In this document: piece by piece, positions 150-29,874 of the stretch
Layout of the letters: each line of letters begins with the position of its first letter
Numbering within the stretch: position 1 is the first letter of the stretch
Assembly (NCBI GenBank): GCA_030599585.1
Contig: JAUVNS010000014.1
Coordinates: 1-64,000, forward strand
Length of the DNA: 64,000 bases
Reading direction: 5' to 3'
Source of the DNA: Promethearchaeota archaeon
Lineage (GTDB): Archaea; Asgardarchaeota; Lokiarchaeia; Sigyniarchaeales; SOKP01
Notes under the pieces: generated by a model
What the model saw: only the letters and a program-made list of their open reading frames with translations
Database searches by the model: none
What the model was told of the DNA's origin: nothing
Made by a program: the position numbers and the translations under genes

Positions 150-3100
150 TTATGAACCGATAGGAATTTTAACTATAAATGTAGAACCTTTCCCCTTCCC
201 TTCAGATTCAGCCCAGATCTCTCCTCCATGGAGTTTAATAATCTCTTTTGATAGAAATAGCCCTAAACCGGTACTACCTAAATCCATATCAAGATCTTTT
301 TTTAGTGGGGATTCTATAGTGCTAAATTTCTTGAAAAGATCTTTTATTTCTTCATTAGATAAACCCACCCCAGAATCACTTATTTTTACCTGAGCAAATT
401 TGCCATCAGACTGCATGTTTATTTGAATCTTACCGTTAGAAGGAGTGTATTTAATTGCATTTGATATTAGATTCGTAAATACAAGTTCAATACGGGATTC
501 ATCAATGTTCATATTGAGTTCAGGTAAGATATCAATATCTATTTCGTGATTCCGTTTATTGCTAAAATATTTCATTTCTTTGATGCAATTTATAATAATA
601 TTACTCAAGTTCGTTCGACTTTTATTTACTTTAAATGTCTTAGATTCCAATAAAGATATATCAAGTAGATCGTCAACTAATTTTTTAATTCTTTTGGTTC
701 CTATTGACGCCATTTCTAATAGTTCCAATTGTTCCGAATCGAACTTATCTTTATGTAATAAGTCTAACAATTGATACGCACCATAAACTGTAGTAATGGG
801 AGTCTTTAACTCATGTGAAGCCCTGTCAATGAATTCCTTTCTCATTTCATTTAACTCCGTTAATTTCACCTCTAATTCTTTTGTGTCTGATATATCATGA
901 CCCATTACCATAATATAAGTTTTATCACCCAATTTCACTAAAGATGAATTTATATCTACCCAAACGAGATCTCCATCCTTCTTCCTTAATTGAATATCGA
1001 TAGCGGGAATAATTTCGCCGTTAGCAATCTTTTTTAATCTCTCAAGAAGAAGAGGTAAATATTCAGTTGGGATAATAGGGAGTCTACCGTACCTCTTACC
1101 AATGAGTTCACTCCTCTCGTAGTTGAGTAATTTTTCTAAAGCAGGATTGCAATCTTCTATTTTACCTTTTTTGTTGATAAGCAAGATCGAAACCGGTGAT
1201 TTCTCAAAAAGGAATCGATATTTCTCCTCTGACTGTCGTAATTCCTCTTTAGCTTTCTTTTTTTCCGTTATATCTATATACGAAACTAGGAAAGCAGGCT
1301 TATTCTGGAACGTGATATGTTTATTGTAAATTTCTAACCATATAGTGCTCCCGTCCCTATGAATTCCACGAGCTTCATAATATTGAACATTGGTATCATC
1401 CTGATTTTCACTTTTTAAAGAGAACTCGATAATTTTTTTCTTATCCTCGTGATGAATCGTCTTAAAAAACTCTCCCTGACCCCAATTCAAAATTTCTTTG
1501 ATTGAATATCCAAGTATATGAGCAAGTGTTTTATTCACATATTTAACTCTATCTTCTTGGATTATAGAAATCCCCATTAAGGATTGTTCTGAAATTGTAC
1601 GGAATTGTTCTTCAGATTCTTTTATTCTCTCTTCAGCCTTTACCATTTCAGTAACATCGTGAATAATGCTTCTCATACCAATAATCGTAGTTCCTTTATA
1701 AATAGGAGTAACTTTTAAACTTCCATGAAAAATTGTTCCATCTTTTTTTTTTAATTGCATAATTAAAGGGTCGACAGTTTTACCCCTAAATATTAGGCTA
1801 AGGTTCCTTATAACTTCATCTCTATCTCGTTCGAGAATGAAATCAAACACATTTAATCCTTTTTTGAATTCTTCGTGAGAATATCCGAAAATTTTTGAAG
1901 CGATTGTGTTGGTATAGACTAATTTAAACTTTGAATCGATTTCAAAGATAACTTCTGGTAACGAGTTTGATAAATCTTTATATTTTTTTTCAGATTCAAT
2001 TAATTTTTGAGCAGCTTCCTTTCTTTCACTTATATCTCTTGAAATTGTAAGTATATAATTTTTCCCATCTGGATTTTTATAGGACTCAGCAGTTGTGTCC
2101 ATCCAAACATATTCACCGGTTTTTTTTCTAATTCTTACTTCAATTGATTTGTATTTCTCTTTTATTGCTTCAACGACTAATTCTCGATCTTCTGGATGGA
2201 CTAAATCTAATGAATTTTTACCAAAAAGATCCTCTGAAGAATATCCCATCAATCTTTTATGAGCTTTCTCGTTGATGTAATCTATTTTTAAGTGATTATC
2301 AACTACTGTTATTAAATCCATTGCATTTTCTGATAATAGTCTATACTTTTCTTCTGATTCCTTAATTTTTATTTGTGAATTTTTCAATTCTGTAATATCG
2401 TGTATAATACATCTTACTCCAGAGACTGAATTCTCCTTGAAGATACGACTTGCATGAATATATGCGAAAAATAACGTTCCATCTTTCCTCCTTAACCTTG
2501 TTTGTAAAGGCTTTACATATTCACCTCGGAAAATTAGTTTCGTCTGCTTCAATAGTAATTCTTTATCCTCAAGTGTTACGAAATCAAAAATAGTTATACC
2601 TTCCTTAAATTCTTGGGGTGTATATCCAAATACTTTGGAAGCTATCGAATTGGTATACGTTATAGTAAAACTCAAATCTATCTCAAAAATTACTTCCGGT
2701 AAAGAATCTGTTAGATTTCTGTATTTCTCTTCGGATTCTCTTAACTTTTTTTCTGCTTTTTTCCTATCTGTTATATCTTGGGCTATACCTTCTACTAAAA
2801 TCTCACCGTTAATTTTTTTAAGTGAATTTTGAACGCTAATCCAAGCGAAAGTTCCATCTTTTCTCTTAATCTTAATATCTTGTGGTTCTATCTTTTTTCC
2901 GGCTAAAGTTTCTTTATAATTATTTTTAAAAATCTCAAATTGCTCCGGAGCAAAAATTCCTAAATCGGTATATTTTTTACCGATCACTTCTCGTTTGGTG
3001 AATCCGAAAATCTTTTCTGTAGCAGAATTAACATTAAGAATAACCCCTTTACTATTAGTTACTGTGAGAGAATTTGGAGACGATTCATACAAAACACGAT

Positions 3101-3530
3101 ATCTTTTCTCTGACTCATTTACTTCTCGTTCTAAAATTTTACGCTGGTTGATATCCTGGGTTAAAACTTGAATATAACTTTTTTTATCAAGCTCAATTTT
3201 TGAAGCAGTAACATTAACCCAAATGAGAGTTTTATCTTTATTATGGATTTGAATATCCTCTGGACCAAAAATACCACCTGTCAGTAATTGATTAAATACC
3301 TTCTTCATTTGTATCTTGTTTGCTGCTGGAAGCATATACAAGTCTGAGAACTTAAAACCGATTAAGTCTTTTCTTTCAAATCCAAAAATATTTTCCGTAG
3401 CAGAGTTGATATCAACAATTTGACTATTTGAGTCAATTATAACAATTGAAATTGGAGTTTTATCAAAGAGCAATTTGTAATTGTCTTGCTGAGGTATTGA
3501 CTCAGTTGTTCTATAATTGGGGTGTGTCAA
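150..3530 (-). CDS. Cytoplasmic sensor histidine kinase with 7 PAS/PAC domains
   Basis: Repeated (E)SEEKYR...DIT/DIS units; HisKA ASHELKTP; HATPase NAIKY, DSGVG, GLGL; no TM segments. Confidence 0.95.
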   Translation of the reverse strand: MTHPNYRTTESIPQQDNYKLLFDKTPISIVIIDSNSQIVDINSATENIFGFERKDLIGFKFSDLYMLPAANKIQMKKVFNQLLTGGIFGPEDIQIHNKDKTLIWVNVTASKIELDKKSYIQVLTQDINQRKILEREVNESEKRYRVLYESSPNSLTVTNSKGVILNVNSATEKIFGFTKREVIGKKYTDLGIFAPEQFEIFKNNYKETLAGKKIEPQDIKIKRKDGTFAWISVQNSLKKINGEILVEGIAQDITDRKKAEKKLRESEEKYRNLTDSLPEVIFEIDLSFTITYTNSIASKVFGYTPQEFKEGITIFDFVTLEDKELLLKQTKLIFRGEYVKPLQTRLRRKDGTLFFAYIHASRIFKENSVSGVRCIIHDITELKNSQIKIKESEEKYRLLSENAMDLITVVDNHLKIDYINEKAHKRLMGYSSEDLFGKNSLDLVHPEDRELVVEAIKEKYKSIEVRIRKKTGEYVWMDTTAESYKNPDGKNYILTISRDISERKEAAQKLIESEKKYKDLSNSLPEVIFEIDSKFKLVYTNTIASKIFGYSHEEFKKGLNVFDFILERDRDEVIRNLSLIFRGKTVDPLIMQLKKKDGTIFHGSLKVTPIYKGTTIIGMRSIIHDVTEMVKAEERIKESEEQFRTISEQSLMGISIIQEDRVKYVNKTLAHILGYSIKEILNWGQGEFFKTIHHEDKKKIIEFSLKSENQDDTNVQYYEARGIHRDGSTIWLEIYNKHITFQNKPAFLVSYIDITEKKKAKEELRQSEEKYRFLFEKSPVSILLINKKGKIEDCNPALEKLLNYERSELIGKRYGRLPIIPTEYLPLLLERLKKIANGEIIPAIDIQLRKKDGDLVWVDINSSLVKLGDKTYIMVMGHDISDTKELEVKLTELNEMRKEFIDRASHELKTPITTVYGAYQLLDLLHKDKFDSEQLELLEMASIGTKRIKKLVDDLLDISLLESKTFKVNKSRTNLSNIIINCIKEMKYFSNKRNHEIDIDILPELNMNIDESRIELVFTNLISNAIKYTPSNGKIQINMQSDGKFAQVKISDSGVGLSNEEIKDLFKKFSTIESPLKKDLDMDLGSTGLGLFLSKEIIKLHGGEIWAESEGKGKGSTFIVKIPIGS

Positions 3531-3744
3531 ATTACTTAACTATTTTGCTCCTAATTTAATGTAAAATCCATTTTTTAAATTATAAACATAATAAATTAGA
3601 TACTTTTTAATATTCTCTTTATTCTCGATGTGCGTTCGGTTATCTAAGATCGAATTTTAGAGAGAGAGATAGTAATCCTTTCTTTTTTATTAAATGAAAG
3701 CTACACAGTTTATTGAGTAGCGAATTTAGATTTCGAACTTAATA

Positions 3745-5265
3745 TTAGGTATGTTCTCTGCGATACTGGGAATATTCATATAGAATTTTTAGGCATTTAG
3801 GTGGAGCATCCCAGAAGTCAAAAATAGGTAGATCATAAGACATGAATTTTTGATACCATGGAAACCTGTATGGAAACGGTCCAGAAAAATAAACAGGAAT
3901 AGAGTACTTCTTCATTAGTCTTCTAATCGGCCTTAAAATAGTTCGATCAAGCATTGATTCCATATTTTTCATATTCTCATCGATTTTCATTCCCGATCGT
4001 TCAATAGTTTCAATTACATCGTCGAAGTCAAATACGCCCCAAACAACAATGCTGTCCACTTCTCCCGACTTCATAAGCATTTTTGGAAATTTATAGAAAA
4101 TATTTAAGAAGTTAACATCAAAAGTAACATCAATAGGATTCTTAGCACTGGCAGTAAAAGGTATTAATTCCGATAGATCATCCTTTAGTTGTTTAGAAAA
4201 TTCTGGAACCTCCAATCCTAATAATTCTGATGATTTTGTCATCATTGAGCCACTTCCACCAGAATCAGTAATAATTCCTATTCTATTTCCTTTCATAAAC
4301 ACGTTGTATTTCTGAGCAAAGGATAATGTCCTCAAATAATATAGAAACTCTCTAATAGAATTAGTTGAAATTATACCCGCTTCTTTAAAAACGCCGTCAT
4401 AAATCTTTTGATCTCCCCCTAAAGAACCAGTATGGCTTTTAATAGATCTATTTGCTGCTTTAGTTCCTCCTGTGTATATAGCTACAATAGGTTTATTTGG
4501 GGTTATCTCCTTAATAATTTGTATAAATTCTTTGCCCCGCTTGATTTCCTCTATGTAAAGTCCAATAACGCCAGTGTAAGGATCGTCTTTGAAATATTCT
4601 AGGAAATCTACCATGTCGATATTTTTTTCATTTCCAACAGAAAGAGATTGACTAATATTTACGCCCATTTCTTTTGCGTGCCAAAAAGTTTGAGCGGCTA
4701 CTGTTCCAGATTGGCTTATAATAGAAATATTACCTTTTTTTGGAACAGCGTAAGGCCAAAAAGTGTTCATATAAGCATCTTCTTTTTCAGGAAACCTATA
4801 CCAAGCGTTATATATTCCCAGACAATTTGGACCAATAAACCTCATCTTATATTTTTTGGCAATCCTATCAATTTCTTGTGATAACAGCATACCATCTTTT
4901 CCAATTTCTCTAAATCCACCAGAAGTTATTAAGAGGTTTTTAATTCCCTTTTCTCCACATTCTTCCATAACTTGGGGAACTGCTCGGGTGGGTAATATAA
5001 GAAATGCAAGGTCAGGTGTAACAGGAAGCTCCATTACTGATTTATAAGCTTTAAAATCTTGAATTTTATCTAAGCGCGGATGAACGGGATAAATATCATC
5101 AACCCCACCTCCAGCTATGATATTTCGAAGCTGCATCGAACCCATCGTAGTTAGTAGGTTGTTATTTGCACCAAATATTGCGATGCTACGTGGATTAAGA
5201 AATCGATGTAAAAAGTGATCCTTGTTCAATTCTCTTTTATCGTTTTCAGTCAAGTTTGAACCCAA
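3745..5265 (-). CDS. ADP-forming acyl-CoA synthetase alpha-subunit family (CoA-binding protein)
   Basis: LNPRSIAIFGA, SGGFREIG, GPNCLG, SQSG, phospho-His SHTGSL, NPIDV. Confidence 0.9.
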   Translation of the reverse strand: MGSNLTENDKRELNKDHFLHRFLNPRSIAIFGANNNLLTTMGSMQLRNIIAGGGVDDIYPVHPRLDKIQDFKAYKSVMELPVTPDLAFLILPTRAVPQVMEECGEKGIKNLLITSGGFREIGKDGMLLSQEIDRIAKKYKMRFIGPNCLGIYNAWYRFPEKEDAYMNTFWPYAVPKKGNISIISQSGTVAAQTFWHAKEMGVNISQSLSVGNEKNIDMVDFLEYFKDDPYTGVIGLYIEEIKRGKEFIQIIKEITPNKPIVAIYTGGTKAANRSIKSHTGSLGGDQKIYDGVFKEAGIISTNSIREFLYYLRTLSFAQKYNVFMKGNRIGIITDSGGSGSMMTKSSELLGLEVPEFSKQLKDDLSELIPFTASAKNPIDVTFDVNFLNIFYKFPKMLMKSGEVDSIVVWGVFDFDDVIETIERSGMKIDENMKNMESMLDRTILRPIRRLMKKYSIPVYFSGPFPYRFPWYQKFMSYDLPIFDFWDAPPKCLKILYEYSQYRREHT

Positions 5266-25930: not shown

Positions 25931-27838
25931 ATGTACGCACAACAACCACCAACACGCCATATTCCCGGAATAATATCCTATATGAATTATTTTTCATCTA
26001 AGAAATCAGCTTATGTTCTCCTTTTTAGCGTACCTGCTATTCTTGCTGTTTTATCGTTTATACTAAATTCACTTTATACAAATATTTGGAACTTTTTTTA
26101 CCTTTCAAATGTTTTACTAACATTTTACTTCACCTCTGGTGGTGGTATCATAATATCGATACTTTTCTACTCAAAACGCGCTCCACTACTTGCTAAGCCC
26201 CCGAAGGGATGGTCTTTTCAAATGAATGCTTTTTTTACTGGAATAATGGGTTTGTCACTTTTAATTGGGGAAACTATTACAATATTCCTTAGAAATATCA
26301 CATTTCAAGAAGTTTTTCTCATATTGGGTACTATAATTTCCTACATCTTCGCATATGTTGTATATTTTTCGTTTACTACCGTTGGTAAATATGGAAATTT
26401 CATTTTAGCATTTGTACAGCCGGTAATTGCAATAACGCTCTATAGTATTTTTGCATCTCAACTTAAATTTCTTTTTTTTATCAGAGCAATCCTTTTTTTT
26501 ACAATTTGTGCTTTTATATTTGCGATCCCATACGCAAGAAGTATGGCTCGAGTAAGTAATATATACAGACAAGCAACTGGTATAGGAGGATATCCTTTTA
26601 TTAGAGCTTTCGTACTCTCGATGTTAACGGAGGGTAATGATGATTTAATTGAAGGAATTTTTGATAAAATAGGTGTCAGCTCCAATGTTTTAATACAATA
26701 CTTGGCAATCAGAAGTAAAACTACACAAAGAGTTAAAGGTTTATTTGTCGTACCGCACGTTCATTTTGGACCTTTTAAAACTTGTGGATCCTCAGATTTA
26801 CCCGCCCATATCTACGAGACATTTAATAATATTCAAGGCACGACGGTTTATCACACTACAAATGATCATTCACAAAATTTAACTTCTCAAAAAGAACTAG
26901 AAAAAGTCTTGAATAAAATTAAGAGCGATGTGAAGTTTATCGAAGAAGATAATAAAGTAGAATGGATAGGAGAAGTTAAAGCCACCACAAGAAGCATGTC
27001 GAATTCTGCAAAGTTAATAGGGATAGATATAAATAATATTGCTATAATGTTCTTAACCAGACATCCCTTACCTTCTGATGATATTCACGCTGAAATTGGC
27101 AATGAAATTAGAAAATTTGCAAAAGCCAAAGGTTATCGTGAGGCTATCATAATAGATTCGCATAATTCTATCATAAAGGATGAAGTCTTAATAAGAAACA
27201 AATCGATAGAAGCTAAAGATCTTATATCAGTTTCAGAAAAATTTCTCGTTTCCAATAAAGCTAAAGGAAAGGACGAAAAAATTATTGTACAATATGGCGT
27301 TGCAAAAGATCCAATGACGGAATACACAGAAAGAGATGGTATTGGTACGGGTGGAATAGTTGTTCACTTATTTAAAGACATTGAATCAAGTCAAAAAACG
27401 GTGTTTATTCACTTCGATGCAAATAATGCGTATGTTGATATTCGTTCGTTCGTTTTAAACATGCTACAAAATAGAGGAATCGAAAGAGGGGAGATTACGA
27501 CTTCAGATTCACACACTGTAGCAAGACAATTTTCTGCTCGTGGATATTCTCCTTTAGGAGATAAGATCACTTTAGAAAAGATTCTAGAGAAAATTGATGA
27601 TTTGATAATTAAAGCAGAAAGCAATTTAGAAGATGTGGAATTTTATTATCACGATTCGATCGTCAAAAATGTAAAGATATGGAACGATCCTCGCTATTTT
27701 GATGTGATTATGAATACATTATTCAAATGTATTAAGGTTTCTCACGGGCTATTCACATACAGTCTGATAATCCCTGCTTTATTTTCAACAATTTTACTTC
27801 TATTTTTCTATAACATCCAATTCTCAGCTATTTTTTAG
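25931..27838 (+). CDS. DUF2070 family membrane protein
   Basis: N-terminal TM bundle; PHVHFGPF, GSSDLP, DSHN, DANN, TSDSH; C-terminal TM. Confidence 0.88.
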   Translation: MYAQQPPTRHIPGIISYMNYFSSKKSAYVLLFSVPAILAVLSFILNSLYTNIWNFFYLSNVLLTFYFTSGGGIIISILFYSKRAPLLAKPPKGWSFQMNAFFTGIMGLSLLIGETITIFLRNITFQEVFLILGTIISYIFAYVVYFSFTTVGKYGNFILAFVQPVIAITLYSIFASQLKFLFFIRAILFFTICAFIFAIPYARSMARVSNIYRQATGIGGYPFIRAFVLSMLTEGNDDLIEGIFDKIGVSSNVLIQYLAIRSKTTQRVKGLFVVPHVHFGPFKTCGSSDLPAHIYETFNNIQGTTVYHTTNDHSQNLTSQKELEKVLNKIKSDVKFIEEDNKVEWIGEVKATTRSMSNSAKLIGIDINNIAIMFLTRHPLPSDDIHAEIGNEIRKFAKAKGYREAIIIDSHNSIIKDEVLIRNKSIEAKDLISVSEKFLVSNKAKGKDEKIIVQYGVAKDPMTEYTERDGIGTGGIVVHLFKDIESSQKTVFIHFDANNAYVDIRSFVLNMLQNRGIERGEITTSDSHTVARQFSARGYSPLGDKITLEKILEKIDDLIIKAESNLEDVEFYYHDSIVKNVKIWNDPRYFDVIMNTLFKCIKVSHGLFTYSLIIPALFSTILLLFFYNIQFSAIF

Positions 27839-27950
27839 AACCAGGAAGCTTATCTTTGTAGCATATGATCTATATATTACAGAGATATATCTATATGATT
27901 TGACCTTTTTTCTTTAAAAATATTCTTTTCTTTTCGTAATTGCATTAGAA

Positions 27951-28487
27951 ATGTTGAGCTCAGAAATTTCAAAATTGATGAAGGTGACATTTATAGGGTC
28001 GCCAGCGGTTGGAAAGACAACTATGCTACGGTTACTCTCAAAGGATACGATTGGTAAATTTTATTTCCCTACCCATGGCTTTGATTTGAAAACGATCAAA
28101 TTAGACGACTATAATATTCGCGTTTGGGATTTTGGCGGTCAAAGTTCGTACCTAAAAACTTATTCAAGAGATTACCTTTTAGGTTCAGATGTTCTTTTTG
28201 TTGTTACTGATTCTACGCCCCGAAATGTTTTAAACTCGCGAGAATTGATTAAATTCGCAACGCATTTTATCGATAAAGAGTGTCCAATAATTGCTATAGC
28301 AAATAAACAAGATTTAACAAAGAATGATGGAAGAATGAGCCCAGATCGCGTAGAACAACTACTCCACATAAAAACATATGGGCTTACGGCGATAAATCCA
28401 AACGAGAGAGTTAAATTATTAGATATTATGAGAAAAGAATTAAACCAAGTAGTATTAAGAAGGAGGTCAAAAGAAGATGAACTTTAA
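27951..28487 (+). CDS. Small Ras-superfamily (Arf/Rab-like) GTPase
   Basis: G1 GSPAVGKTT, G2 PTHG, G3 WDFGGQ, G4 NKQD, G5 TAI. Confidence 0.93.
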   Translation: MLSSEISKLMKVTFIGSPAVGKTTMLRLLSKDTIGKFYFPTHGFDLKTIKLDDYNIRVWDFGGQSSYLKTYSRDYLLGSDVLFVVTDSTPRNVLNSRELIKFATHFIDKECPIIAIANKQDLTKNDGRMSPDRVEQLLHIKTYGLTAINPNERVKLLDIMRKELNQVVLRRRSKEDEL

Positions 28488-29031
28488 TGAAGATGAACTT
28501 TTTGGAGCAGCCCTAATAGGTTTTGACATGATTGATGGACCTTTTTTACGTTGGAAGAAGGAATATGGCCCCAAAACAAATTTGATGAAGCTAGATGATT
28601 TTGCCATGAACTTCTATCTCGCATTTAGAGGTGGTAATGCCGGGAAGAAACCAAGAGCTATTTTATACGATAAATTCTACATCGTTGCCTTTCCTCAAGA
28701 TCTTGAGTTATGTTGTTTATTCATGAAACCCCAGGGAATAGATAGGAATATTAATCAGTTGAACAAAATTGCTTCAAGAATAACTCATGAGATGGAATCT
28801 ATTGAACAAGAAGATGATACACCTATTAATTCTGATGAAGACACAATCGAAGAAATGAAAAGGCTTATCGTAAATCTATTGAGTGGTATAGAAATGTCTA
28901 CGCCTGAGTTAAGAAAATATTTCAAATTAAGCAATTCTCAAATTTGGAAAGTAATGTCCAATTTAGAAAGCTCTTCAAAAGTAAAGCGTGCAAGAAAACA
29001 AGGAAGAACTGTTTTATGGACCGCAAACTAG
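28477..29031 (+). CDS. Longin/uDENN-like domain plus acidic linker plus winged-HTH protein
   Basis: ALIGFDMIDGP N-terminus; EQEDDTPINSDED linker; MSTPELRKYFKLSNSQIWKVMSNLE...VKR...VLW; overlaps the GTPase gene by 11 nt. Confidence 0.65.
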   Translation: MNFNEDELFGAALIGFDMIDGPFLRWKKEYGPKTNLMKLDDFAMNFYLAFRGGNAGKKPRAILYDKFYIVAFPQDLELCCLFMKPQGIDRNINQLNKIASRITHEMESIEQEDDTPINSDEDTIEEMKRLIVNLLSGIEMSTPELRKYFKLSNSQIWKVMSNLESSSKVKRARKQGRTVLWTAN

Positions 29032-29067: not shown

Positions 29068-29874
29068 TTACCTAATATGATCCCATTCTTTTTCTTTAGT
29101 AAACATCCTAGAAAACATTATATAACAAATATCAGGCAATTCCTTGTCAATGTTTTGTAAGGTGATATATCGTAGAATATGATTAATTAGGAAAATTCCC
29201 AGAAATTCCATGTGATAACTACCTACTTTTTTAGAGAGTGATTCACCTGTATAAGAGATATTTAGTTTCTCTTGAGTATCGTACGTTAATTCAATAGAAA
29301 TTCCTGGAAATACTTCCTTTGTAATTTGCCATTTATCAGCTGTTTTCCACACTGTAGCACCTAGAAAAACTGCTAAGTCATTTACATCACTATCTTTCAA
29401 TAATCTAAATGGCTCAGTTCTTTGAATTAAAACCTTTTGCATTAATTCGGATTTTTTATCATAAGAATGTTCAAAGGGTTCTCTATTTTGAATCATTCTC
29501 TCCATAAAATTAAAAATTATATCAACGTAAGTAATGCTATCTTCACCAGGGATTAAATGTACTCTTTCACCTGAAAAAAAGCATTTAAATTCTGCGGTAA
29601 CCCCATCTCCAAATTCATCTCCGAAATATGTAAAAACTAGATGTATGTTAACCTCTGGAAACATTTCTAACGTAATCGTCCAATCTTCGTTAAAACCTAT
29701 ATTTTCGATTTTACCCCCAATATCCTCGAAAATTATCTTCTTAAGCATATTCATGTTAATATCAACGAAAAGTTTATGCTTTGCTTTGCTAACATCTTCT
29801 AATTCCTTAACATGGGGGCCTGTTACACCAGTTGCATCGATTTGACCGACAGTCCAATATTTAGTTCCAGTTAT
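29068..29874 (-). CDS. DUF3786-like duplicated-domain protein; probable ATA start
   Basis: Two similar halves (LEMFPEVNIHL / KEVFPGISIEL), DEF...PGED; frame open 40 codons above ATG 29754 to ATA behind AGGTGG. Confidence 0.65.
   Translation of the reverse strand: MTGTKYWTVGQIDATGVTGPHVKELEDVSKAKHKLFVDINMNMLKKIIFEDIGGKIENIGFNEDWTITLEMFPEVNIHLVFTYFGDEFGDGVTAEFKCFFSGERVHLIPGEDSITYVDIIFNFMERMIQNREPFEHSYDKKSELMQKVLIQRTEPFRLLKDSDVNDLAVFLGATVWKTADKWQITKEVFPGISIELTYDTQEKLNISYTGESLSKKVGSYHMEFLGIFLINHILRYITLQNIDKELPDICYIMFSRMFTKEKEWDHIR

Follow-up and report, generated by a model that had tools for sequence, protein, structure and literature searches.

The window analysed here is a stretch of 64,000 nucleotides (nt) from a Promethearchaeota archaeon of the class Lokiarchaeia (contig JAUVNS010000014.1 of assembly GCA_030599585.1, positions 1 to 64,000; AT-rich, about 32% G+C), and the subject of this work is a pair of genes on its forward strand, which encode an Arf-family small GTPase and a protein, hereafter the partner, composed of an N-terminal longin domain, an acidic linker and a basic C-terminal winged helix-turn-helix (wHTH). 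The coordinates of all the features are collected in Table 1. The two open reading frames (ORFs) share 11 nt (28477-28487), and the existence of this overlapping pair, described in an earlier note made from the sequence, is confirmed, the overlap being of exactly the length given there. A Shine-Dalgarno-like GGAGG precedes the second start codon, and a spacer of 112 nt separates the GTPase gene from the upstream neighbour, a gene of a DUF2070 membrane protein ending at position 27838.

The pair is strongly conserved. Close homologues of the partner, about 500 in number, came exclusively from Asgard sources, and in a library of 1.8 billion proteins they reduce to only 28 clusters at 50% identity. 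The GTPase gene was found directly upstream of the partner gene in 80/80 loci from different genomes, which answers in the affirmative the question of synteny raised in the earlier note; the frames overlapped in 78 of these loci, by 1, 4, 11 or 14 nt, and a purine run of the GGAGG/GAGG type preceded the second start in nearly all of them. In a sample of 301 genomes from the phylum, the full-length partner was present in 63 of the 68 genomes of the family to which the window belongs, in 6 of 7 genomes of a sister family, in another two families within the class and in two from elsewhere, while longin-only relatives of about 130 amino acids (aa) occurred in five further families; the partner was not found among the searched genomes of several large families (e.g., 0/76 and 0/28). 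In the distant full-length cases the GTPase gene is still a neighbour of the partner gene, as it is in one longin-only family, and in the latter, as well as in one other family, a separate gene encoding a wHTH-zinc-ribbon protein is divergently adjacent. The genome that contains the window has no paralogue of the partner, and the search for longer fused forms of the partner found none, which is weak evidence. The two-gene module is characteristic of Lokiarchaeia-type Asgard archaea. Since GTPase genes of the archaeon MK-D1 generally lie outside operons with longin or roadblock genes (PMC10933270), the GTPase/longin pair represents an exception.

Several individual loci deserve mention. The closest one, L002 (DATKTW010000082.1), has the same neighbours and a partner of 91% identity; it is filed as a 'Candidatus Nanopelagicaceae bacterium' metagenome-assembled genome, being probably a mis-binned Asgard contig. 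At L144 (G012:C30), from a distant family, the GTPase reads D-x-x-G-H, with His replacing the catalytic Gln, and the partner is longin-only; the wHTH-zinc-ribbon neighbour of this locus is present at L145 also.

Judged by its motifs and profile, the first gene product is a member of the Arf family, within which phylogeny delimits the ArfR and ArfL clades of Asgard GTPases (10.1101/2024.02.28.582541). The protein scored 70.6 bits against Pfam Arf (cut-off 22.3; E 1.5e-19), its closest solved relatives were Arl3, Arl2 and Arf1 (E 6e-16 to 1e-11), and all five motifs are in place (G1 GSPAVGKT, switch I PTHGF, G3 WDFGGQ, G4 NKQD, G5 TAI), the first four being of the Arf type, in full agreement with the initial description of an intact G1-G5 GTPase. 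A comparison of 17 orthologues (67-88% identity) showed 68 invariant columns, to which belong the catalytic Q64, a D-S-T-P-R-N-V segment following strand 4 and residues 1-5, M-L-S-S-E (27951-27965). The invariance of these first five residues suggests a functional N-terminus, e.g., one bearing a site of modification or forming a short amphipathic helix.

The fold of the partner was predicted with AlphaFold2 (AF2) on an alignment of 19 relatives (predicted local distance difference test score, pLDDT, 79.5). Its N-terminal domain consists of a strand (8-17), a second strand (21-29), a helix (39-51), three strands and a helix (92-112), and the domain modelled separately (pLDDT 76.7; predicted template modelling score, pTM, 0.70) kept the same order of elements, which is that of longins. 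A Foldseek search with the whole partner model returned weak mixed matches only, and the N-domain had to be split off, whereupon nearly all of its structural matches were GTPase platforms of the longin, roadblock or profilin fold. The top VIA match was a Lokiarchaeal longin (Z 10.1, root-mean-square deviation 3.5, 109 residues), followed by TRAPP longins (Z 9.9), MglB (Z 9.8) and a GATOR1 chain (Z 9.3, 14% identity), while Mon1-Ccz1, the uDENN domain of DENND1A and a chain of the FLCN-FNIP2 complex appeared at Z 7-8. As the domain has no N-terminal helix, it is a longin and not a roadblock. The longin-type assignment proposed in the earlier note was therefore borne out, in the structure search suggested there, by the order of the elements and by the near-exclusively longin/roadblock matches.

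The same domain opens with an F-D-x3-G-P motif, which had been taken from the start as the mark of a GTPase platform. Its residues F16, D17, G21 and P22, together with Y47, F50, R51, G52, G53, N54 and P59, are invariant in 81 orthologues, and the first four are likewise invariant in 19 diverse family members; R60 is retained in 79/81 orthologues and R129, in the C-terminal domain, in 81/81. G21-P22 forms the opening of strand 2, which starts at residue 21, and the spacing of the motif equals that of W33-D34...G38-P39 in C9orf72. According to a 2025 survey of longins of GTPase-activating proteins (GAPs), this GP motif sits at the loop before strand 2 in C9orf72, SMCR8, FLCN and NPRL2, is missing from FNIP2, from NPRL3 and from non-GAP longins, e.g., those of adaptins, TRAPP subunits and DENND proteins, and is specific to GAP longins; the same survey states that structurally similar Asgard longins carry the motif and asks whether their partner is an ArfR or a Rag GTPase (PMC12290439). 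The initial attribution of the motif to GTPase platforms is thus strengthened by its invariance and by its spacing, which is that of the GP motif of GAP longins. Asgard NPRL2-like longin families have already been catalogued as Asgard clusters of orthologous genes (asCOGs; 10.1101/2020.10.19.343400). When compared with the GP-motif GAP longin class, the partner showed its fold and its position of G-P, and did not match the sequence profiles of its families; NCBIfam gave no family for the N-domain, and none was found among the 25 commonest Pfam families across the 19 members (E up to 10).

The acidic, disordered linker (pLDDT below 50 at residues 112-118; mean net charge -6.7 across 81 orthologues) is followed by the winged helix, which spans residues 121-183 in the AF2 model, ends in VLWTAN and bears a mean net charge of +4.6 across the same orthologues, so that the acidic linker and the basic wHTH ending in VLW are both found as previously described. 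VIA gave Z 9-10.8 to regulators of the ArsR/MarR type, and the domain also resembles the winged helices of Z-alpha, SelB, RPA2, ESCRT-II and cullins. When 19 family members were scanned singly, 7 matched HTH_11 (best 7e-8), and others matched HTH_5 (1e-7), DeoR (1e-7), GntR, MarR and TrmB; for the window protein itself, which matched no Pfam family over its whole length, NCBIfam returned weak matches of the ArsR/SdpR type only (E 0.03-0.4). By both fold and profile similarity to DNA-binding families the domain fits the class of wHTH regulators, in keeping with its first reading. The recognition helix and wing, both basic, are conserved across the 81 orthologues, with N153, R171, R177 and W181 invariant and K158 retained in 80/81. 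Judging by these residues and profile matches, the balance tilts slightly towards nucleic-acid binding by the winged helix.

A complex of two partner copies and one GTPase with GTP and Mg was then modelled. Its interaction prediction score from aligned errors (ipSAE) was 0.74 (0.74, 0.75 and 0.68 in separate runs), the best of three controls reaching 0.00; the runs shared at least 86% of contacts, and the pLDDT of the partner was 84. In calibration the ipSAE mark was reached by 58/80 solved complexes and by 2/110 mismatched pairs, but the present job differed from the calibration by its own alignments and by the inclusion of the GTP and Mg ligands, and its pass may be due to the likeness to solved longin-GTPase complexes. 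The first partner copy contributes to the interface residues 16-23 (the F-D-x3-G-P loop), 44, 47-48, 51-55 (R-G-G-N-A) and 76, whereas the second touches the GTPase with helix 1 of its winged helix (122-138, with the invariant R129), which contacts the P-loop and the 87-95 segment. On the side of the GTPase, the P-loop (17-19 and 23), switch I (36-45), switch II (64-67, with Q64) and the invariant residues 87-95 are involved. With GTP present, G21 is placed beside the catalytic Q64 and R51, invariant in the 81 orthologues, beside switch I. The modelled interface coincides with invariant residues of both proteins and leaves the recognition helix and wing free. The complex prediction proposed in the earlier note has put the motif on the nucleotide pocket of the GTPase and, as a model, supports binding; the two proteins very probably form a specific complex.

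To characterize the promoter, the 130 nt upstream of the GTPase start were aligned for 81 loci. A conserved element was alignable in 71 of them (consensus aTAaTAtnTnGATATTATccAGATTcATATt), its core most often beginning 71 nt before the GTPase ATG; the window contains a diverged version of it. On its left side the element consists of an inverted repeat, TAATAY-N4-RTATTA, with 7-nt arms, the centres of which are 11 bp apart. A T-rich spacer separates the element from a TATA-like box, and boxes of the CTTAATAA type occur at the equivalent place in orthologous loci; the location of this box at about -30 implies a very short leader, i.e., a nearly leaderless transcript. The dyad AGATATATCT, to which the earlier note had drawn attention, is indeed present at 27883-27892 within the right block of the element (2 occurrences in the window against 0.19 expected), but the same positions in most orthologous loci read AGATTCATAT, which is not a dyad, and the dyad was rejected as a functional unit, being not palindromic in orthologous loci. 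Neither a position-weight matrix nor a 28-mer scan found a second copy of the element in the genome of the window. Five other genomes were scanned with the 20-nt core: in four of them its sole match at 0-1 mismatch was the promoter of the operon itself, and in the fifth nothing matched even when up to 3 mismatches were allowed. Those 3-mismatch matches that were examined fell within coding sequence or away from promoters. The right block is accordingly specific to the GTPase operon among the genomes tested.

The inverted repeat, on the other hand, is common to the operon and to the promoters of ftsZ1. In 29 genomes of the family, which are related and not independent samples, it lies about 82 nt before the ftsZ1 start, perfect in 13/29 and with at most 1 mismatch in 21/29, against a background rate of 0.008-0.027 per 70 nt, and its distance is equal in the ftsZ1 promoters and in the GTPase operon. 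The repeat thus looks like a cell-division promoter box. Its sharing with ftsZ1 argues for co-expression with cell-division genes and not for autoregulation, and the GTPase operon is probably co-expressed with them. Across the genome of the window the bare repeat is not enriched (16 sites against 10-13 simulated, and 23 against 28 in the control), the 16 sites form no clear regulon, and the sepF promoter of this genome contains no convincing copy of the box. Before ftsZ1 of two families in which the searches did not find the partner, the exact repeat does not occur, but related half-sites (GTAATAC or GTATTAC, then CATATC) do; in one of the two families a cdrS-like ribbon-helix-helix gene is situated between the half-sites and ftsZ1. 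The presence of half-sites in such families indicates that another factor probably binds the box, which is probably older and more widespread than the partner; the product of the cdrS-like gene found upstream of ftsZ1 in family f9 is one candidate for this factor.

Some further observations were made on these promoters. In the genome of the window, ftsZ1 is located at C3:49380-50492 with the repeat region at about C3 49295-49330 (ftsZ1 loci L153-L182), and in ftsZ1 promoters the repeat is followed by a conserved ATTAATTCTAATTTTT block and then by a TATA-like box. In family f9 (L183-L207) a small gene directly precedes ftsZ1, the product of which ends in a ribbon-helix-helix of the YPNRSE-AIR-AIRDLL type; this arrangement resembles the haloarchaeal cdrS-ftsZ2 one. 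The same genome encodes a second small GP-motif longin of 125 aa (C8:200242-200619, minus strand), with W-D-x3-G-P near the N-terminus, and a perfect TAATAY-N4-RTATTA repeat lies 150 nt upstream of its gene. At C9:163476-164480 an ORF of 117 aa is followed by a gene of a Rab-like small GTPase (174 aa), and an element like the promoter box of the operon extends over the first start codon; the two genes may represent a further pair of a small protein and a GTPase.

The whole is best explained, with a probability of roughly 0.5, by a dedicated module of a GTPase and its GP-longin regulator, which carries a nucleic-acid-binding winged helix and is expressed in connection with ftsZ1. The overlapping frames would ensure that the Arf-family GTPase and the partner are made together in fixed proportion. 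The F-D-x3-G-P and F-R-G-G-N loops of the partner would dock on the P-loop, switch I and switch II of the GTPase, and such docking implies that the partner most likely reads or sets the nucleotide state. GAP would be its likeliest activity, at somewhat less than even odds. The winged helix would most likely serve as a nucleic-acid-binding output or anchor, and the promoter with the ftsZ1-type inverted repeat would provide for expression of the operon alongside cell-division genes. The earlier note's interpretation as a whole, a GTPase-controlled transcription switch, is partly supported. A bolder form of it, in which a partner dimer sits on DNA and is switched by the nucleotide state of the GTPase via the GP-motif longin, we regard as tentative and, on the whole, unlikely; if true, this small-GTPase-gated DNA-binding protein would have its sites in its own promoter, in those of division genes or on the chromosome, a eukaryote-type GTPase switch would be linked to DNA during the cell-division programme, and the partner would represent an archaeal precursor of the NPRL2/NPRL3 layout, one whose winged helix has kept the ability to bind DNA.

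Several results weigh against this explanation by a GTPase-regulator module. No Pfam family was found on the N-domain of the window protein (E up to 1), the profile of this domain gave only a spurious MarR match (E 0.21) against all sequences of the PDB, and a search of the whole genome with Pfam NPR2 (PF06218) did not match the locus. The partner homodimer is an assumption, and not a scored outcome, of the 2:1 complex model, and in this model the winged helix of the second copy touches the GTPase by its helix 1; winged helices of NPRL2/3, ESCRT-II and cullins are protein binders. Longins and roadblocks acting as GAPs, as guanine nucleotide exchange factors (GEFs) and as scaffolds tie for the N-domain (Z 9-10), so that the fold tells the superfamily and cannot decide the activity, and neither the candidate arginine finger R51 nor R60 is constant among distant members of the family. 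The half-sites before ftsZ1 in the two families where the partner was not found speak against it as well.

These facts allow other explanations to be formulated. The GTPase-longin complex may be real, with the winged helix acting only as a protein-contact or dimerisation module, in which case the locus would encode a miniature GATOR1-like GAP having no link to DNA. We consider this possible, though unlikely: the combination of a longin with a winged helix is the NPRL2/3 layout (PMC3747258), the ESCRT-II, cullin and APC2 domains match the winged helix at similar Z, and its helix 1, with R129, is modelled on the P-loop and the 87-95 segment of the GTPase, whereas relatives of the partner score about 1e-7 against DNA-binding HTH families, the modelled interface does not include the recognition helix and wing with their invariant basic and polar residues, and a wHTH-zinc-ribbon gene adjoins in two families with longin-only relatives. 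Somewhat less probable is that the longin works as a nucleotide-exchange platform or as an effector or scaffold (TRAPP-, Mon1-Ccz1- or Ragulator-like), and not as a GAP. The GP motif, which the survey reports for GAP longins but not for those of the TRAPP, adaptin or DENND kind (PMC12290439), and the model with GTP, which puts G21 by Q64 and R51 by switch I, argue against such a role; it is suggested by the fact that GEFs or scaffolds make up the majority of longin and roadblock platforms, by the scores of TRAPP, MglB and LAMTOR chains, similar to that of the GATOR1 chain (Z 9-10), and by the lack of conservation of the candidate arginine finger in distant relatives.

The self-contained switch of the earlier note, i.e., binding of the partner, under control of the GTP state, to the dyad or element that precedes its operon, appears doubtful, and binding of the partner to its own promoter element, taken by itself, improbable to the same degree. 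Such a switch would agree with the conservation of an element of about 30 nt at a fixed distance, with the uniqueness of the 20-nt right block to the operon promoter in the genomes tested and with the 7-nt arms spaced 11 bp centre to centre, which suit a dimeric winged helix. Moreover, wing residue 175 covaries with the type of the right block, being Q/E in 14/14 loci with a variant block and K/R in 40/40 loci with the consensus block; this association, however, is confined to one clade, i.e., represents one event, and is at most a lead. The named dyad, besides, is lost as a dyad in other loci, the inverted repeat is common to ftsZ1 promoters, families in which the searches did not find the partner have related half-sites ahead of ftsZ1, and the element lies upstream of the TATA box and not over it. 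Finally, that the two genes are mere neighbours devoid of a functional link is hardly credible in view of the 80/80 synteny, the 78/80 overlaps, the retention of the pair in distant families and a complex model scoring far above its controls; the one argument in its favour would be that operons of GTPase and longin genes are in general rare in MK-D1 (PMC10933270).

Among the known systems, NPRL2/NPRL3, FLCN-FNIP and C9orf72-SMCR8 share with the partner an N-terminal longin with an aromatic-D/H-x3-G-P loop before strand 2. The GTPases on which these eukaryotic longin GAP subunits act, Arf or Rag, are engaged by them at the nucleotide pocket, where the partner is likewise modelled. In NPRL2 and NPRL3 the N-terminal longin is followed by wHTH repeats (PMC3747258), i.e., the C-terminal position of the winged helices and the domain order are the same as in the partner; the layout of a longin plus a winged helix, of which the earlier note knew no characterised example, thus has a precedent. 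In contrast to the eukaryotic proteins, the partner has 184 aa, a single winged helix and no DENN or TINI part, no second longin subunit is encoded in the operon, the GTPase is co-encoded, and no sequence profile matches. The Asgard NPRL2-like asCOGs (10.1101/2020.10.19.343400) and GP-motif longins (PMC12290439) are of the same class and have GAP-longin-like predicted structures; the two papers name no partner GTPase, and their text, as far as it was searched, contains no such winged-helix fusion or operon. The MglA-MglB pair is similar in combining a prokaryotic small GTPase with a partner of roadblock/longin fold over the switches (MglB, Z 9.8), but MglB has the topology of a roadblock, which includes an N-terminal helix, and lacks both GP motif and winged helix, and the GTPase described here is Arf-like, with catalytic Gln and NKQD. 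In the signal recognition particle (SRP) receptor an Arf-related GTPase, SR-beta, is likewise bound by a longin-like domain, SRX of SR-alpha; SRX, however, has no GP motif and no winged helix, the present locus has no SRP-receptor context, and its match to Pfam SRPRB is below the cut-off. Regulators of the ArsR, DeoR and BirA types resemble the C-domain of the partner in fold, in weak-to-moderate profile similarity and in the basic recognition helix and wing, but the sensor of the partner is a GTPase-docking longin and not a small-molecule or metal site. In the literature searched we found no account of the fixed operon with an Arf-like GTPase, of the single basic winged helix or of the promoter link. 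The longin class is already known, and the combination of these three features appears to be new.

Asgard genomes encode dozens of small GTPases and of longin/roadblock proteins, and which regulator matches which GTPase is mostly unknown because such genes rarely occur in operons (PMC10933270). The locus described here provides a fixed, translationally coupled pair, with which answers to the ArfR-or-Rag question of the GAP-longin survey (PMC12290439) become assayable. The longin plus winged helix layout suggests a possible origin of the GAP subunits of GATOR1, and the basic winged helix, together with the ftsZ1-type box, a possible GTPase switch tied to DNA and cell division, in hosts which are the closest archaeal relatives of eukaryotes.

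Table 1. Location of the features of the GTPase/partner locus (positions in the window, except for the last three lines)
Feature	Position	Strand	Basis or remark
Conserved upstream promoter element (inverted-repeat box and right-hand block)	27863-27893	+	diverged version of the family consensus
TATA-like box, ~30 nt before the GTPase start codon	27913-27922	+	read from the sequence; putative function
Arf-family small GTPase gene	27951-28487	+	ORF, 178 aa
GTPase motif G1	27996-28019	+	sequence
GTPase motif G3	28128-28142	+	sequence
GTPase motif G4	28302-28313	+	sequence
Shine-Dalgarno-like GGAGG for the partner gene	28462-28466	+	within the 3' end of the GTPase gene, 10 nt ahead of the second ATG
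Longin-winged-helix partner gene	28477-29031	+	ORF, 184 aa
Longin domain, aa 1-112	28477-28812	+	strand-strand-helix-strand-strand-strand-helix
F-D-x3-G-P motif	28522-28542	+	FDMIDGP, residues 16-22
F-R-G-G-N motif	28624-28638	+	invariant loop of the longin domain
Acidic low-confidence linker, aa 113-120	28813-28836	+	acidic run begins near aa 106
Basic winged helix-turn-helix, aa 121-184, and stop codon	28837-29031	+	AF2 fold, profile matches in relatives
T-rich tract past the partner stop codon	29032-29057	+	read from the sequence; likely archaeal terminator
L144 (G012:C30), GTPase/longin-only pair, gene one	~3346-3828	-	
L144 (G012:C30), GTPase/longin-only pair, gene two	2950-3345	-	
L144 (G012:C30), divergent wHTH-zinc-ribbon gene beside the pair	3891-4232	+	

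Downstream of the pair, the T-rich tract is likely the archaeal terminator of the two-gene unit; no bacterial-type terminators were found, sigma-70-like matches were at chance level, and the Rfam search gave no match. Beyond this tract a gene encoding a protein of 228 aa (29068-29754, minus strand) converges on the operon. It belongs to no clear family (best match DUF3786 at E 0.1), and its position is kept in 74/80 loci.

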